Source: a virus
Length of the DNA stretch: 64,000 bases
Reading direction: 5' to 3' (one strand)
Virus record (IMG/VR): IMGVR_UViG_3300042549_010246
Coordinates: 1 to 64,000 of that record
In this document: in pieces, positions 29,168 through 46,433 of the stretch
How the letters are laid out: each line of letters opens with the position of its first letter
Position numbering within the stretch: position 1 is the stretch's first letter
The notes under the pieces: generated by a model
What the model saw: only the letters and a program-made list of their open reading frames with translations
Told to the model about the DNA's origin: nothing
The model's database searches: none
Position numbers and translations under genes: made by a program

Positions 29168-29599
29168 ATGAAAAAAATAACAGTTATCCTTCAGGAGAAA
29201 AATGTGAAATTGAACAGTTTACCTGAGAACATTCAGACAGCAATTGAAAATTCAATTAATTTGTATGATGACATTCAGAATTTGGAAGCAACATTGACCG
29301 AAGAGTCAACTGATGAAGAAAAGGCTGAATTAGTCGAAATGAGAGAGACCCACGATGAATTTAATGAATCTATCGTAGGTGCTATTGAAAATTTTCAGAA
29401 AGAAACTGAGGCTAAGACAAAAGCCGAACAGAAAAACGACCAACCCCCAACTCCCCCACCTGCGCCAATAAACACACCCGCGCCAATTGGCGAAACTGAT
29501 GAAAAGAAAAAAGGTTTTGGAATCGGAACCTTTATTCTCGGAGCGGCTGTATTGATTGCAACAGCGGGTGCAGTTAATATGATGAGAAACAAAAACTAA
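29168..29599 (+). CDS. Acidic coiled-coil protein with C-terminal TM
   Basis: Pro linker followed by GFGIGTFILGAAVLIA. Confidence 0.75.
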   Translation: MKKITVILQEKNVKLNSLPENIQTAIENSINLYDDIQNLEATLTEESTDEEKAELVEMRETHDEFNESIVGAIENFQKETEAKTKAEQKNDQPPTPPPAPINTPAPIGETDEKKKGFGIGTFILGAAVLIATAGAVNMMRNKN

Positions 29600-29808
29600 T
29601 GGAAAAATTACCCCAACACTACTTTGCATTTAATCCACAATCCGTCCGTTGGATGGATATGGTATTTGTAGCACCAATAATGATTTATGCGGGTGTCAAG
29701 GGTGATTTTAAACCGTATGTTAAATTTTCTTTGATTGCTATTGGGTCTTTGACTTTTCTGTACAACGGCATTAATTATGTAACCAATTTACAAAACGGAG
29801 AGAAATGA
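29599..29808 (+). CDS. Small two-TM membrane protein
   Basis: Two hydrophobic segments. Confidence 0.7.
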   Translation: MEKLPQHYFAFNPQSVRWMDMVFVAPIMIYAGVKGDFKPYVKFSLIAIGSLTFLYNGINYVTNLQNGEK

Positions 29809-30098
29809 GTTACCGTATTACGAGATACACTTTTGAACAGGCCAAAAAATTGGGGGTGACGGTGAAGCCGTCTACGGTCCAAGGCAAAAAAATTGATGTG
29901 TTCAAAAACGGAACTAAAGTCGCTTCGGTTGGAGCAGTTGGCTACAATGATTATCCGACATTTATGCGATTAGAGCGCGAAAGAAAAGTTCCCGAAGGAA
30001 CAGCAAATTTGCGTAGGAAAGCATATAAAATCAGACATCAAAAAGACAGGACCGTCCGTGGAAGCAATGGATGGTACGCTGATAAACTATTATGGTAA
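29805..30098 (+). CDS. Small basic viral protein (DUF5754-like)
   Basis: PST..KKIDV...GAVGYNDY...RRKAYKIRH...GWYADKLLW; family recalled from memory. Confidence 0.65.
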   Translation: MSYRITRYTFEQAKKLGVTVKPSTVQGKKIDVFKNGTKVASVGAVGYNDYPTFMRLERERKVPEGTANLRRKAYKIRHQKDRTVRGSNGWYADKLLW

Positions 30099-30250
30099 TG
30101 GACAAGAAATTAAAAGTAGTAATCGTAGCATCAATAGGTATTGCCGCAGTTTTGATTGGAGTGTCTTTACTCTTTATTCAAAGGGGTATTGACCGAAAAG
30201 CAATTACAGAGGAAGACCGAAATGTTTTAAGACAAATTAGAATTTCGTAA
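30098..30250 (+). CDS. Small membrane protein (50 aa, not in track)
   Basis: MDKKLKVVIVASIGIAAVLIGVSLLFIQR... Confidence 0.7.
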   Translation: MDKKLKVVIVASIGIAAVLIGVSLLFIQRGIDRKAITEEDRNVLRQIRIS

Positions 30251-30252
30251 TT

Positions 30253-43869: not shown

Positions 43870-44378
43870 AGAAAAAATTATTAATCATTGGAGGTGCTAC
43901 AATTGTAGCCGCGATAGCGTTCAGGACGTTATATAAGAACTTGTATTTAGCAGGTCAATGGGATTTTAATATGGGTACTTTCGGCATAAAATCTTTAAAG
44001 CCCCTTATAGTAACCCAAACTATTGATTTTATCAACAAAAGCAATTTAAAGTTAACTGTGAAAAACATCAAAATTGGTGTTTATAGCAATGATATCAGAA
44101 TCGGTCAAATCGATAGGGCTAATGAGCAAACTATCGGCCCAAAAGGTATCAGTAAGTTCACTTTAGAGTATGCTTTAACTCCAACTTTAGGGAATCAAGC
44201 CGCTAAAGATGCAATTACAAAAGTCGCGTCTACCTATTTGCAGACAAAAGACTTACCTGTGGACTTTGTTGGTTCCCTTGACGTAAAAACTCCATTTGGT
44301 TTTGTGACCGTTCCCGTAAGATATTCATCCACGGGGAAAAATTTATACAAATTGTGGTATGAATATATGAACGGATAA
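43866..44378 (+). CDS. TM-anchored LEA_2/WHy-like protein
   Basis: INKSNLKLTVKNIKIGVY...IG...TIGPKG. Confidence 0.6.
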   Translation: MKKKLLIIGGATIVAAIAFRTLYKNLYLAGQWDFNMGTFGIKSLKPLIVTQTIDFINKSNLKLTVKNIKIGVYSNDIRIGQIDRANEQTIGPKGISKFTLEYALTPTLGNQAAKDAITKVASTYLQTKDLPVDFVGSLDVKTPFGFVTVPVRYSSTGKNLYKLWYEYMNG

Positions 44379-44410
44379 TTGCTATATTTGAGCAATAGTT
44401 GTGTACATAT

Positions 44411-44788
44411 ATGAATATTAAAAAAGATTTTTTTAAAGGAGTCAGTCTTTATGCTACCGAATCTTCGGTTCAAGAAACAGAAGTGCAGGTTAGATTGACT
44501 ATTGGTCAGACCGAATCTGAGCCTATTAATTATCAGTGGTGCATTAATTGGCAGCCCAATCGTGTTACTAATTATAACGAAGTAATGGGGCGCAAAATTA
44601 TCAATATCACTGAGGCTTTAGTGGTTCCTATGTTGCATCAAGCAATGGTCAAGTGGGCAAGAACGCTTGACATTTCATTTGAAGATTTCAGTGGTTTTTT
44701 GTTCAAAAAAGACGATGTTATTGGTGTTGCTATCTACGATAAGACAACTCCAAAAAAATTATGTCCAATTGAAGAATTACTTGGATGA
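44411..44788 (+). CDS. Hypothetical protein
   Basis: ATG at 44411; TATATTTG -7-like box at 44383. Confidence 0.65.
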   Translation: MNIKKDFFKGVSLYATESSVQETEVQVRLTIGQTESEPINYQWCINWQPNRVTNYNEVMGRKIINITEALVVPMLHQAMVKWARTLDISFEDFSGFLFKKDDVIGVAIYDKTTPKKLCPIEELLG

Positions 44789-45669
44789 GCATCAAAGTAG
44801 CACGAAGTTCACATTGGGTGATTCGAACTCTTGAAGGGAATGGTTTAGCCGTTTACTTAGGAGAAGATGAGCAAATTTATGTCAAAGACCAAAATGGGAC
44901 CATTCAATTATTAAAAGAACTTCTCGGGTCGCTATCCTTAGATATTCCCGAAGGTGGTTTTCAAAGTGGAACTTCAGGAACATCGGGTAAAACAAACGGA
45001 ACATCGGGCTCATCGGGAACGAGCGGTTCGAATGGTCAAGACGGAACATCAGGTCAAAACGGAGTCGATGGAACTTCAGGGTCATCAGGCTCATCAGGGA
45101 GTGCGGGTACGAGCGGGGTGGATGGAAGTTCAGGCTCTTCGGGTATTAGTGGTGTGGATGGAAGTTCAGGCTCTTCAGGAATTTCAGGTTTCAATGGTGT
45201 AGATGGTTCTTCGGGAACAAGCGGTAATGGTGGAACGAATGGTACGAGTGGTATTAATGGTACCTCAGGTTCTTCGGGAAAAGATGGAGATATTGGGGTT
45301 AAAGGAAGTAATGGAACATCGGGTTCTTCGGGTATTTGCGGTTCCTCAGGTACAAGCGGTAAAGGATATTCTTTTGAAGAAATTGAAAGTCGTTCTAAGA
45401 CAATATTGGATTTTACAAAAAGTCAAATACTTTCCTTAAATTTGAATAATAACACGACCCTAAATTTTGCAGGTTTTCCTGTCGGAATATTTTATCTGAT
45501 TGTGAAGCAAGGTATTGGTAATTACAGTGTTAATTTGCCTTACGTTGTCAAACAACCAAAAGGTTTTGAATATGTTCCAAGCATTTACCCAAATGCTGTA
45601 GATGTGTTACAATTTATGTGCGATGGCACATCATTTTATGTGATTGACTGTAAAAAAGAATTGCAATGA
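44785..45669 (+). CDS. Short collagen-like fibre or spike protein
   Basis: About 41 G-X-Y triplets (GTS/GSS/GVD) between globular domains. Confidence 0.75.
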   Translation: MSIKVARSSHWVIRTLEGNGLAVYLGEDEQIYVKDQNGTIQLLKELLGSLSLDIPEGGFQSGTSGTSGKTNGTSGSSGTSGSNGQDGTSGQNGVDGTSGSSGSSGSAGTSGVDGSSGSSGISGVDGSSGSSGISGFNGVDGSSGTSGNGGTNGTSGINGTSGSSGKDGDIGVKGSNGTSGSSGICGSSGTSGKGYSFEEIESRSKTILDFTKSQILSLNLNNNTTLNFAGFPVGIFYLIVKQGIGNYSVNLPYVVKQPKGFEYVPSIYPNAVDVLQFMCDGTSFYVIDCKKELQ

Positions 45670-46433
45670 CCAATATTTTAACCACGAGTTTAGGAAGAAA
45701 CATTAATACCGTAGAGGGTAATGGTCTTGCTATATTCGTTGACGACACGGATTTCGTGTTGAAGTTAAAAGACGTTGATGGCAATATACAACCTGTAACA
45801 GACTTCACAGGTAGCGGTGGAACGAGCGGTGGTGGAATACAATCCATCAATGCCTTGACAGCACCCGCGCAATTTTTGGTGACAGGTACTTCAGGAAATG
45901 ATTTTGCGGTACAGTCTTCAGGCAATACACATACCTTTAATTTGCCAAATGCGAGTACAAGCGCACGAGGTGTAGTTAGCACGGGCCCACAAACAATCAA
46001 AGGGATAAAAACATTTACAGACAATGCATTTTTTCAAGGCGATGTTGATATTTTAGGTACGCTTACAGCGGAAGCAAAATCGTTCTTGATTCCACACCCC
46101 GACCCTGACAAACAAGGGTGGGATTTACAACACGGAAACTTGGAGGGTGGCGAACACGGTATTTATCACCGTGGCCGTCTTCAGGGGACAAATATGATAT
46201 ATCTACCTTCATATTGGAAGTTTTTGGTGAGTCAGCATACCATTACGGTACACTTGACAAGTGCCAAAGGCAACTTCAATTATTTCGTAGAAGATGTGAC
46301 TTTAGAAACTATTAGAATTGCAAAATCCGAGGGTGATTGGTACTCTTATGATTGCTATTTTATAATTCACGCTGAAAGACGAGATATTGGCAAATTGAAG
46401 GTGGAAATTACACCTCAAGAAAAGCAATATTGA
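45666..46433 (+). CDS. Fibre or spike-associated protein
   Basis: N-terminus shared with the previous gene; KSFLIPHP...LEGGEHGIYHRG domain typical of viral fibres. Confidence 0.6.
   Translation: MTNILTTSLGRNINTVEGNGLAIFVDDTDFVLKLKDVDGNIQPVTDFTGSGGTSGGGIQSINALTAPAQFLVTGTSGNDFAVQSSGNTHTFNLPNASTSARGVVSTGPQTIKGIKTFTDNAFFQGDVDILGTLTAEAKSFLIPHPDPDKQGWDLQHGNLEGGEHGIYHRGRLQGTNMIYLPSYWKFLVSQHTITVHLTSAKGNFNYFVEDVTLETIRIAKSEGDWYSYDCYFIIHAERRDIGKLKVEITPQEKQY

Follow-up and report, generated by a model that had tools for sequence, protein, structure and literature searches.

The window analysed here, 64,000 nt in length, covers the first 64 kb of a virus record of IMG/VR (84,705 nt, CheckV 100 %, 95 ORFs genome-wide), so that the element does exceed 64 kb, as stated in the preliminary description. 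The stretch between positions 29168 and 46433 encodes on the plus strand a lytic transglycosylase, for which the proposed SLT domain was found (30253-30978; PF01464, E 2.7e-6, 27.4 bits, cut-off 21.3), a genome-packaging ATPase (34452-35273), a candidate for the major capsid protein (35612-36313), a series of small membrane proteins and two fibre or spike-like proteins. Not all genes in this stretch are structural: RusA (32571-33068), a DnaA-C-like HTH protein (33019-33465) and a PAP2-family lipid phosphatase-like protein (32018-32665, plus strand; PF01569, E 9.9e-11) are encoded there as well. Directly upstream of the ATPase gene lies an ORF for an acidic protein of 325 aa with a basic C-terminal tail (33465-34442, plus strand), which is kept in 12 related loci with 35-89 % identity and has no match in Pfam, PHROGs or NCBIfam; as a guess, it might be a scaffold or DNA-binding protein.

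Reading of the sequence between the ATPase and capsid genes revealed a predicted single-pass membrane peptide of 37 aa (35461-35574, plus strand), and a homologous hydrophobic peptide occupies this gap in all 14 related loci in which both genes are present. The unit of membrane peptide and capsid gene is bracketed by terminator-like hairpins on the plus strand: a strong one after the ATPase gene (35306-35330, a stem of nine pairs followed by a T run) and one with a run of nine T after the capsid gene (36339-36373), which was read from the sequence and had been missed by the consensus scan because its loop exceeds the limit of the scan.

Membrane proteins, fibres and upstream proteins

The capsid gene is followed by a block of 16 small ORFs (36566-44378, plus strand), 14 of which have one predicted membrane span (nine C-terminal, five N-terminal) according to a hydropathy scan (Kyte-Doolittle, 19-mer, threshold at least 1.6). 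The other two encode a soluble HExxH protein and a protein with a LEA_2-like domain; Pfam matches within the block are LEA_2 (E 3.4e-6) and PG_binding_3 (E 3.3e-4). Relatives keep the synteny of the block. No PHROG match was obtained for nine of ten proteins scanned (eight in this block), and the protein at 41682-42230 gave one weak row (phrog_807, E 0.021). Throughout 29168-46433 the threshold was passed by 19 of 33 ORFs; two of these, the ATPase core and the SLT protein, probably do not represent membrane spans, and the 37-aa peptide adds one. The predicted membrane proteins thus amount to about 17-18 in this stretch and to 30 of the 95 ORFs genome-wide; the earlier count of over 20 was slightly high, whereas the pattern itself is real.

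The HExxH protein (39776-40558, plus strand) is zincin-like and a candidate maturation protease. All 25 sequences of the alignment share residues H187, E188 and H191, and weak matches to zincin families of Pfam occur among them (PhageMetallopep in seven, M56 in four, SprT-like in three and M48 in two); a PDB sequence match was not found.

The two fibre or spike-like proteins are encoded at 44785-46433 (plus strand), the first being collagen-like (PF01391, E 2.7e-17) and the second ending in a domain common to phage proteins without known function (phrog_28536, E 3.1e-27). Further downstream, the ORF scan located the start of a collagen-like fibre protein of 5338 aa (52323-64000, plus strand, continuing to genome position 68339) with collagen matches of E 3e-37 and 2.4e-42 and a C-terminal Peptidase_S74 chaperone domain (E 8.9e-16). 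Upstream of the structural stretch, matches in Pfam and PHROGs characterise a region of large multi-domain proteins (14729-29153, plus strand), which are candidates for packaged cargo. They include a protein of 764 aa whose C-part resembles ART-PolyVal (TM 0.68 by target over residues 519-730 in an ESM Atlas structure row, a lead only), a collagen-like protein of 476 aa, a MoxR-type AAA+ protein (467 aa) with a 550-aa partner, a winged-helix array of 969 aa, DUF2958 fused to RelA/SpoT and a 1094-aa protein with nine h-A-x-G-G sites. This motif was counted 16 times versus 0.79 in shuffles, with a pattern that was picked after viewing the data.

Packaging ATPase and capsid candidate

The ATPase (273 aa) is assigned to the B204/A32/P9-like branch of the FtsK-HerA group. 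Its Pfam profile matches are weak and both below the cut-off (AAA_22, E 0.0015; DUF87/HerA, E 0.0038), the protein alone found no PDB sequence at E <= 1 and its profile none beyond the P-loop, to which the alignment with PRD1 P9 is confined as well. Comparison with the packaging ATPase of P23-77 by hhalign resulted in a probability of 83 % (E 8.8e-6, 151 columns). The AlphaFold2 model (pLDDT 88.3) is more informative: in Foldseek against the PDB the first 15 listed rows (ranks 1-15 as listed, some ranks collapsed) are all B204 of STIV/STIV2 with E 7.5e-9 to 1e-6, and the N-domain of Zot appears in the list at E 2e-5. VIA-align gave Z 17.8-18.9 for B204 (rmsd 2.7-2.9, 185-188 residues) compared with 15.7 for HerA, 13.9 for VirB4, 12.0 for FtsK and 11.9 for TcpA, which is a lead of more than 2 Z units over HerA and of about 5-7 over VirB4 and FtsK. 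The top rows in BFVD include a Corticoviridae NTPase, giant-virus A32-like proteins, PH1, mavirus, poxvirus OPG160 and adenovirus IVa2. Since both Foldseek and VIA-align put B204 first, the A32-like label given to this protein initially is right. It carries neither a nuclease domain nor the additional domains found in VirB4 and VirD4, and its helical C-terminal part of ~60 residues (217-268) is absent from B204. Zot stands on 11-14 % of the members in related ATPase clusters of the ESM Atlas. An assignment to the VirB4, VirD4 or Zot type was dropped, as the protein groups with B204 (closest in Foldseek, BFVD and VIA) and the A32-like packaging ATPases.

The capsid candidate (35612-36313, plus strand) comprises 233 aa, about 185 of them past the acidic leader (1-50), and these figures agree with those reported before. 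Its AlphaFold2 model (pLDDT 84.7) shows a leader disordered at residues 19-41 (below 50) and one jelly-roll-like beta sandwich at about 52-217, roughly 165 residues, and is thereby nearer to a single than to a double jelly-roll, as had been suspected. The structural matches are generic. All Foldseek matches have E >= 3e-3, and the best VIA row (Z 6.1) is the carbohydrate-binding module of AlgX; jelly rolls from the capsids and pentons of PRD1/PR772, PM2, PBCV-1, EhV, Faustovirus and phiCjT23 score Z 4.9-5.7. Jelly rolls from cement, turret and tail-fibre proteins of tailed phages match as well as capsid proteins do. Because these matches are generic, it is not the fold but genomic context, conservation and paralogy from which we infer that the 233-aa protein is the major capsid protein.

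The capsid candidate is among the best-conserved genes of the module and shows the top identity in nine of the 14 loci holding both capsid and ATPase genes. Searches gave 1382 homologues and 579 clusters at 50 % identity, all unnamed; neither VP16 nor VP17 of P23-77 resembles the family profile in sequence. A conserved paralogue of 149 aa is encoded at 70618-71067 (hhalign against the family profile, probability 85.5 %, E 5.7e-6), and a second or third weaker match to the capsid profile occurs in three of five related genomes. Two relatives, P0127 and P0201, contain two full jelly-roll units in tandem on one chain each (i-E 4.8e-44 and 1.4e-43, and 1e-41 and 1.9e-32, respectively), these being two of the eight longer or two-stretch hits examined.

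A tailless virus might also use the 233-aa protein as penton, spike base or cement and build its shell from another, unrecognised protein. Penton-type and cement jelly rolls do match it as well as coat proteins (PR772 chain O, Z 5.7; PM2 2w0c_L, Z 5.1; KHP40 cement, Z 4.8), a coat protein of 185 residues is small for a genome of 85 kb, and ORFs without any family remain (33465-34442, 68339-69016 and 77981-79024). We nevertheless regard this arrangement as rather doubtful: apart from the high identity among loci and the terminator-flanked unit adjoining the ATPase gene, the smaller 149-aa paralogue would itself suit a penton, relatives hold tandem double forms and inspection of the translations revealed no further beta-rich ORF of coat size.

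Tailed-phage hallmarks, genome ends and host

Terminase, portal and HK97 genes had been named beforehand as speaking against a tailless virus. Over the whole 84.7-kb record no match at E <= 1 was obtained for TerL_ATPase, Terminase_6N, Phage_portal, SPP1_portal and Phage_capsid (HK97), an exclusion by sequence profiles alone, so that a portal or HK97-fold protein of strongly diverged sequence could escape it. The tailed-phage and double-jelly-roll profiles without a genome match at this threshold are PF03354, PF03237, PF04860, PF05133, PF05065, PF04451 and PF09018, the double-jelly-roll P3 profile being included; PF03354 was found in none of five related records. Each ORF of at least 200 aa was scanned in at least one library (60 sequences in Pfam, 40 in PHROGs, 10 in NCBIfam), the giant fibre at its two ends only.

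The element could still be a tailed phage with an over-divergent HK97-fold capsid, portal and terminase, the jelly-roll protein being a decoration and the ATPase having another function. Most related clusters carry the label Uroviricota in IMG/VR-type resources and among ESM Atlas neighbours, but the Atlas taxon labels are automatic; collagen-like proteins match tail-fibre families of PHROGs, but as low-complexity repeats. The S74 chaperone domain is of a type commonly seen in fibres of tailed phages, and phrog_6126 ('virion structural protein') matches the ORF at 80130-80825 with E 7.3e-7. The sole TerL-family row is that of the ATPase to phrog_2666 (E 0.0011, sub-threshold, profile positions 325-486 of 555), which is also the only non-collagen PHROG row in the tailed-phage head/packaging category among the scanned ORFs of at least 200 aa. 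The absence of matches to the five hallmark families, an ATPase without nuclease domain that is nearest to B204 by a clear margin, and large ORFs otherwise explained (the 764-aa and 969-aa proteins and the 467/550-aa pair) make a tailed phage distinctly unlikely.

The related contigs concentrate at 70-92 kb and no integrated copies were found among them; a survey of 185,579 species genomes gave three matches, all of them short contigs that had been binned wrongly (labels Bathyarchaeia, Planktophila and Alphaproteobacteria). A plasmid-like or conjugative element, in which the membrane proteins and the FtsK-HerA ATPase would make up a DNA-transfer or secretion apparatus, is highly improbable, since, although such ATPases also drive conjugation (VirB4 and TcpA score as given above) and type IV systems likewise combine many membrane proteins with an SLT domain, B204 lies well above VirB4 and the coupling proteins, the 273-aa ATPase has none of their extra domains, a relaxase or VirB-type match is absent from every Pfam, PHROG and NCBIfam scan, the contigs show the size range and lack of integration just described, and both the jelly-roll family and the collagen fibres have a viral character.

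Comparison of the two ends by blastn indicated a probable left inverted terminal repeat (1-489, no strand assigned), positions 440-489 being the exact reverse complement of the last 50 nt of the record. In run X1 a 486-nt contig spans 4-489 unbroken at 440 and has two continuations after 489; contigs stop near the left end in X1 (4), X2 (1) and X7 (12), and signs of end repeats were present in both relatives examined. The genome is therefore probably linear with inverted terminal repeats of ~489 nt, a reading that is not secure because positions 1-439 do not show twice the depth of the arms (13.9 vs 16.1 in X1, about 5 vs 10.1 in X7). A protein-primed DNA polymerase was searched for and not found, which fits badly with a PRD1-like end structure.

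Bacterial-type genes (RusA, RecT, a DnaD-like initiator, SLT, PG_binding_3) point to a lake-water bacterium as the probable host. The leaders, which are SD-poor and A-rich, and the MAG labels (two for Flavobacteriia against one for Pelagibacter) faintly hint at the phylum Bacteroidota.

Relation to known viruses and proposed particle

B204 of STIV/STIV2 (Turriviridae) resembles the ATPase in fold and size class, with an identity of only 14-18 % and an archaeal host instead of a bacterium. The Thermus phage P23-77 of the single-jelly-roll group (Helvetiavirae, Halopanivirales) is similar in pairing a single-barrel coat protein, a candidate here, with a second related barrel protein. Its order of ATPase, ORF14, VP15, VP16 and VP17 corresponds to the ATPase, small proteins and small jelly-roll coat genes described here, and membrane proteins and a transglycosylase then complete the common arrangement. 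P23-77 differs by its circular genome of 17 kb, compared with 85 kb and a probably linear form, and by adjacent barrel genes, which are 34 kb apart here. In PRD1 (Tectiviridae) the order P9 ATPase, small ORF gpi, small membrane protein P20, P3 and small membrane proteins mirrors 34452-36313, the virion transglycosylase P7 has a counterpart in the SLT protein, and among capsid proteins the second barrel of P3 gives one of the best matches (Z 5.4-5.5). The PRD1 genome is linear with inverted terminal repeats. Unlike in PRD1, neither the double-jelly-roll P3 profile nor a protein-primed polymerase was matched, and the genome is about six times as large.

The largest bacterial virus of tailless type documented here is SSIP-1, for which two publications give a particle of 100 nm with T = 49, a circular 44-kbp genome, two coat protein types and the entry 'single jelly roll?' (PMC6260650, PMC6356626). 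Its giant structural protein gp43 (6960-nt gene) recalls the giant fibre, whereas its genome is circular and about half the size. No similarity to SSIP-1 was detected when the profiles of capsid candidate and ATPase were run in hmmsearch, or by blastp of the 95 proteins against its six frames at E <= 0.01.

The gene set noticed in the preliminary description is thus confirmed and its interpretation supported: with a probability of roughly two in three, we consider the element, an uncultured double-stranded DNA virus of ~85 kb from lake-water bacteria, a member of a new, large lineage of tailless-type phages. Such a module was not found described in the literature searched. As read from the genes, the particle would be tailless and icosahedral with an internal membrane. 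The jelly-roll protein, probably with its 149-aa paralogue, would form the capsomers, or capsomers plus vertices, and the small membrane proteins would populate a lipid vesicle beneath the shell. The linear genome with its inverted terminal repeats may be pumped by the ATPase through one vertex of a preformed particle, as P9 does in PRD1. The HExxH zincin could trim leaders at recurrent [F/Y]-x-N-A-D-G and h-A-x-G-G sites, which occur in the capsid leader, the membrane proteins and the large upstream proteins; the latter would travel as cargo. Transglycosylase and membrane might carry the DNA through the cell wall, and the collagen-like fibres, including that of 5338 aa, would serve as vertex spikes. 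Such a phage would have a genome about twice the size of that of the largest phage of this kind grown so far.

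Packaging ATPase and tailed-phage hallmark profiles

Sequence searches with the 273-aa product of 34452-35273, the candidate packaging ATPase, yielded rows below the Pfam cut-off for AAA_22 (E 0.0015) and DUF87/HerA (E 0.0038) and a sub-threshold PHROGs row for the TerL family phrog_2666 (E 0.0011), covering profile positions 325-486 of 555. A total of 634 homologues were found at E ≤ 0.001, all without a name and some with PF01935. When the PDB was searched by sequence, the ATPase alone obtained no match and its profile reached only the P-loop of ClpB. An AlphaFold2 model was calculated with 25 homologues as input (mean pLDDT 88.3, pTM 0.85). 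The first 15 rows listed by Foldseek against the PDB, with some ranks collapsed, were all B204, the packaging NTPase of STIV and STIV2 (E 7.5e-9 to 1e-6), followed by the N-domain of Zot (E 2e-5) and then by RecA, F1 and FtsK proteins. Structural alignment with VIA-align gave Z scores of 17.8-18.9 for B204 (rmsd 2.7-2.9 over 185-188 residues), 15.7 for HerA, 13.3-13.7 for SIR2-HerA and 12.0 for FtsK. Within the predicted viral structures of BFVD the best rows comprised a Corticoviridae NTPase, the A32-like ATPases of Medusavirus, Mimivirus and Klosneuvirus, the PH1 ATPase, mavirus, poxvirus OPG160 and adenovirus IVa2. In hhalign, the ATPase family profile aligned with the packaging ATPase of P23-77 over 151 columns (prob 83 %, E 8.8e-6) and with PRD1 P9 at the P-loop only.

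Taken together, the fold matches to B204 and in BFVD and the profile alignment with P23-77 argue for a place of this protein among the packaging ATPases of membrane-containing jelly-roll viruses; as modelled, it belongs to the A32/P9/B204 packaging branch of the FtsK-HerA superfamily. A grouping with Zot or with the conjugative VirB4/VirD4 ATPases was the alternative named in the preliminary description. Zot follows B204 directly in the Foldseek rows, and the ESM Atlas neighbours of the ATPase carry Zot on 11-14 % and DUF87 on 11-20 % of members. The protein nevertheless belongs neither with the assembly ATPases of the Zot/pI type nor with the conjugative ones, since the Foldseek E value of Zot and the Z scores of VirB4 (13.9) and the coupling protein TcpA (11.9) are worse than those of B204, which reaches 18.9.

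The same description had pointed to HK97 or terminase genes on the element as possible counter-evidence. A six-frame search of the whole 84,705-nt record with the hallmark profiles of tailed phages, the Caudoviricetes (PF05065, PF04860, PF05133, PF03354, PF03237), returned no match to TerL_ATPase, Terminase_6N, Phage_portal, SPP1_portal or Phage_capsid at E ≤ 1, a result that applies to sequence profiles and not to folds. For double jelly rolls, Capsid_NCLDV and Phage_Capsid_P3_N also stayed without a match at E ≤ 1 in six frames of the whole genome, and TerL_ATPase is absent from all five related records of 70-80 kb. Library scans (Pfam 60 sequences, PHROGs 40, NCBIfam 10) covered every ORF of at least 200 aa, each in one library or more, and the giant fibre by its two ends only. 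Apart from a weak row in the membrane block described below, structural PHROG rows consisted of matches that collagen repeats gave to families annotated as tail fibre or 'virion structural protein' and of phrog_6126 'virion structural protein' for 80130-80825; the SLT protein obtained phrog_669 'endolysin' and phrog_4067. The sole TerL-family row was the sub-threshold one of the ATPase itself.

Capsid candidate and its relatives

For the capsid candidate, encoded at 35612-36313 and 233 aa long, one collection contained 1382 homologues (E ≤ 0.001), and an exhaustive search gave 579 clusters at 50 % identity, none of them with a name or Pfam domain. Its AlphaFold2 model (100 sequences, pLDDT 84.7) consists of a helix (3-17), a disordered acidic stretch (19-41, pLDDT < 50) and a beta sandwich at about 52-217. 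Foldseek found no match below E 3e-3, and the weak rows comprised picornavirus and comovirus coats, STMV, TNF/C1q domains, PRD1 P5 and carbohydrate-binding modules. With VIA-align against 48,161 chains, the best Z score of 6.1 belonged to the carbohydrate-binding module of AlgX; further matches were the GFLV coat (6.0), PR772 chain O (5.7), PM2 2w0c_L and PBCV-1 (5.1 each), the EhV coat (5.1), the Faustovirus coat (5.0) and phiCjT23 (4.9), and a second look returned the second barrel of PRD1/PR772 P3 (Z 5.4-5.5). Jelly rolls from tails, turrets and cement proteins of tailed phages scored equally well. The solved coats of the P23-77, SH1 and HCIV type were not among the 50 matches listed per search, which is no evidence of difference. 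The modelled fold is a single jelly-roll-type sandwich, a fold which by itself does not identify a coat. The jelly roll that the preliminary description had proposed for the MCP is retained for the monomer model, with matches of a generic kind.

Gene context and relatives enabled a more specific reading. Comparison of 18 related loci identified 14 with both the capsid and the ATPase gene, and in nine of these the capsid candidate has the highest identity of the module (e.g., 70 % vs 57 % for the ATPase in locus L009 and 61 % vs 53 % in L013); the identity of the ATPase is the higher one in L003, L008, L010, L011 and L012. The capsid gene forms a unit of its own on the + strand, with a strong terminator hairpin after the ATPase gene (35306-35330), a promoter-like site before the capsid gene (35548-35576) and a terminator hairpin with nine T behind it (36339-36373). 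The gap between ATPase and capsid gene holds the gene of a 37-aa hydrophobic peptide (35461-35574, +), and a homologous hydrophobic peptide occupies this gap in all 14 related loci with both genes. The order ATPase, peptide, capsid candidate is the same as that of PRD1 with P9, the small ORF gpi, P20 and P3, and P23-77 with its order ATPase, ORF14, VP15, VP16, VP17 likewise has small genes between ATPase and coat. Right after the capsid-gene terminator lies a lysine-rich 56-aa ORF (36397-36567), which is absent from the gene listing and for which tblastn showed conservation in L003, the closest relative, alone.

The capsid family profile also aligns with a 149-aa product encoded at 70618-71067, 34 kb away from the capsid gene (hhalign, prob 85.5 %, E 5.7e-6), and both proteins have T-I-D-P-Y-Q in common. 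Weaker second or third matches of the capsid profile occur in three of five related genomes. The initial idea that 71067-71429 supplies the strands missing from this paralogue found no support, as the capsid profile showed no relation to that ORF (hhalign, prob 0.4 %). Double jelly-roll coats have two barrels in one chain. Eight longer or two-stretch relatives of the capsid family were examined, and two of them contain two full jelly-roll units in tandem: P0127 (397 aa, unit i-E 4.8e-44 and 1.4e-43) and P0201 (411 aa, 1e-41 and 1.9e-32). In P0226 and P0179 an insertion of about 100 residues lies within the barrel. Because of its conservation, its own terminator-flanked unit, the peptide gene order, the paralogue and the tandem relatives, we read the 233-aa protein as the candidate coat.

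Remaining module, large upstream proteins and shared motifs

The region 36566-44378 comprises 16 small ORFs, 14 of which encode proteins with one predicted membrane span (nine C-terminal, five N-terminal); for the module, 17-18 small single-span proteins are predicted. In a PHROG scan of ten proteins, eight of them from this region, nine remained without a match at E ≤ 0.05, and one weak row was obtained for 41682-42230 (phrog_807 'major tail protein with Ig-like domain', E 0.021). The block further includes one LEA_2 domain protein, one weak PG_binding_3 protein and a soluble 260-aa protein (39776-40558) with the residues H187, E188 and H191, which are invariant in all 25 sequences aligned out of 1710 homologues. 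Members of this HExxH family gave weak matches to zincins, namely PhageMetallopep (7/25), M56 (4/25), SprT-like (3/25) and M48 (2/25), and the family profile had no meaningful match in the PDB. SLT (30253-30978, +) and PAP2 (32018-32665, +) were found above the Pfam cut-off, and two fibre-like proteins at 44785-46433 (+) by Pfam and PHROG. After 46433 follow three fused glycosyltransferase and FkbM methyltransferase genes and then a giant collagen-like protein of 5338 aa (52323-68339, +) with a C-terminal Peptidase_S74 intramolecular chaperone domain. Its ORF consists mainly of collagen-type triplets, and the repeat keeps several frames open. Non-structural genes are present in 29168-46433 as well, namely RusA and a DnaA-C-like HTH.

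Glycosyltransferases of the GT2, GT4 and GT9-like types are unusually numerous at 501-6167 (-), 10974-13781, 46430-52330 and genome 83997-84638, and at least five FkbM-type methyltransferase domains lie in the same regions. Plausibly, these enzymes decorate the Ser/Thr-rich fibres.

A block of genes upstream of the module (14729-29153) codes for large multi-domain proteins. For the 764-aa protein (14729-17023), the Atlas model resembles ART-PolyVal at 519-730 with a TM score of 0.68 by target, which serves as a lead only. Further elements of the block are a MoxR-type AAA+ protein, a winged-helix array and a DUF2958 domain fused to RelA/SpoT. The MoxR-type protein, a MoxR/CobS-like ATPase of 467 aa, shares the stretch 18459-21520 with a 550-aa protein that comes after it and has no family match. 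The block fits the 'polyvalent protein' concept of Iyer and colleagues.

Two short patterns recur. With the giant protein left out, h-A-x-G-G was counted 16 times (0.79 ± 0.89 in 200 shuffles), and nine of these sites divide the 1094-aa protein (24757-28041) into small modules; the 764-aa protein has this motif too, as does the junction of DUF2958 and RelA/SpoT (28038-29153). For [FYML]-x-[NGDS]-A-[DNT]-G the count is eight (0.66 in shuffles), with two sites in the capsid leader and five in proteins of the membrane block. As both patterns were picked after viewing the data, the comparison with shuffles overstates their enrichment. The family consensus of the capsid leader retains F-x-x-A-D-G and A-x-G. 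We infer a putative role of the HExxH protein in cleavage at the shared motif sites. The 1094-aa, 764-aa and DUF2958-RelA/SpoT proteins look like packaged polyproteins.

Genome ends, host and relation to known viruses

The IMG/VR virus record is a single contig of 84,705 nt, classed as 'linear' with a CheckV completeness of 100 %, and the window makes up its initial 64,000 nt. It is AT-rich (GC 33-40 %) except for the repeat region of the 5338-aa ORF, where GC reaches 50-55 % from 54 kb on, and a tRNA search found none. The genes left of about 8.4 kb point towards the left end, and those from 8.5 to 71.4 kb point to the right; genes of replication and recombination at 71.5-79 kb form a leftward block, after which a rightward block extends to the right end. 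The left arm is a cluster of GT2 and FkbM genes, the right arm encodes RecT, a PDDEXK nuclease and a GDSL lipase, and a DnaD-like initiator lies at 9529-10191. Below the Pfam cut-off, rows for DUF5754 (29805-30098, E 4.4e-5) and DUF5824 (14286-14672, E 0.0015) were obtained.

Blastn of the ends showed that 440-489 and the final 50 nt of the record match exactly in reverse complement (genome 84656-84705; locus L002 18658-18706). The ends were studied with contigs of four lake metagenome runs (X1, X2, X7, X8) placed on 1-2500. In X1, a separate contig of 486 nt spans 4-489 unbroken at 440; from its loose end at 489 the sequence continues either into the left arm or into the right arm in reverse complement. 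The contigs of X1, X2, X7 and X8 stop at positions 4, 1, 12 and 84, respectively. The contigs of X7 and X8 show no differing letter, and neither run is marked as a possible source of the record, whereas X1 and X2 may be. A circular map, in which a spacer would lie between inverted repeats, is disfavoured, since it predicts a branch at 440, which the X1 contig crosses unbroken. The 50-nt inverted match, the unbroken contig and the stops at 1-12 fit an inverted terminal repeat of about 489 nt collapsed in assembly, which would give a true length of about 85.1 kb. Against an inverted repeat counts that depth does not double over 1-439, although end effects could account for this. The related genome G005 (72,545 nt, 100 % complete), classed under 'inverted terminal repeats' by IMG/VR, carries a perfect 123-nt repeat at each tip, and in the relative G004 the leftmost 120 nt correspond to a segment that lies 878 nt inward of the right end, a pattern that repeats of about 1 kb could produce.

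Genes of bacterial type (RusA, RecT, the DnaD-like initiator, SLT, PG_binding_3) and an excess of terminator-like hairpins (22 vs 10.7 ± 3.2 in shuffles) point to a bacterial host. An SD-like core precedes only six of 95 genes, compared with 10 % of random 15-mers, and the 15 nt preceding the starts contain 51 % A vs 32 % genome-wide. Such SD-poor, A-rich leaders are usual in Bacteroidota, but not specific to them. The Bacteroidota -7 motif TAnnTTTG, upstream of nine of 95 genes (10 sites, about six expected), is not clearly enriched. MAG labels on homologues name Maribacter, Vicingaceae and Pelagibacter. A scan of 185,579 species genomes detected no prophage and no host, and returned three short contigs with the conflicting labels Bathyarchaeia, Planktophila and alphaproteobacterium. 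Eighteen of the 21 listed runs are labelled as lake-water metagenomes, four were confirmed by placing contigs, and no RNA run is among the 21. Evidence on the environment is drawn from these four, leaving aside the shares of X3-X6 and X9-X21.

Of the traits of tailless, membrane-containing dsDNA viruses with vertical jelly-roll capsids, the realm Varidnaviria in the wide sense, the genome has the packaging ATPase of the A32/P9/B204 branch. Their coat, with one or two barrels upright on the shell, and their inner lipid membrane with small viral proteins would be represented by the jelly-roll-like candidate and by the 17-18 predicted single-span proteins. Tectiviridae have the double jelly-roll P3 and a protein-primed family B polymerase, whereas a single barrel is predicted here, PF09018 has no match at E ≤ 1, and the profile test for family B polymerases including protein-primed ones (PF03175, PF00136) found none at E ≤ 1. 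Halopanivirales (P23-77, SH1-like) carry two adjacent single jelly-roll coat genes downstream of the ATPase, in contrast to one gene with a distant paralogue, and VP16 and VP17 of P23-77 lack sequence similarity to the capsid candidate (hhalign, prob 0.1 % and 0.7 %). A tblastn search with capsid candidate and ATPase against 50,697 records of cultured phages, a set from which near-identical records may be missing, gave no match at E ≤ 1e-3. For metagenome-mined prokaryotic double jelly-roll viruses, PMC5894146 gives genomes of about 7-18 kb. SSIP-1 is described in PMC6260650 as 100 nm, T = 49, with a circular genome of 44 kbp and 'single jelly roll?', and in PMC6356626 with two coat protein types. 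Its record (43,788 nt) likewise has a giant structural gene, of 6960 nt, and neither profile searches nor blastp found similarity between SSIP-1 and the present genome. A published description of the lineage was not found in the literature searched, which leaves subscription journals mostly aside.

The observation made for 29168-46433 is confirmed, and its interpretation as a tailless, internal-membrane virus with a large genome and a small MCP is supported as far as sequence and predicted structure reach. A bolder reading, with a probability of roughly 0.3 as a whole, is that of a new high-rank lineage of membrane-lined jelly-roll viruses of lake bacteria with linear genomes of 70-92 kb and inverted terminal repeats. 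Since its single-barrel shell family includes natural tandem two-barrel fusions, the transition between single and double jelly-roll coats would be preserved there in living viruses, and large multi-domain effector proteins would be packaged and cut by a virion zincin at shared A-x-G sites. To our knowledge, such maturation cleavage is otherwise known from adenoviruses, poxviruses and ASFV, whose comparable schemes work with cysteine proteases. The genomes of the lineage, 70-92 kb in size, are abundant in lake metagenomes; the largest cultured bacterial virus of this type that could be documented has 44 kb according to PMC6260650. If confirmed, the particle design would scale far past the bacterial cases known so far, and a common group would be overlooked or mislabelled by virome surveys built on tailed-phage markers. 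With its tandem fusions, the single-barrel family would be a direct test case for the origin of double jelly-roll coats.
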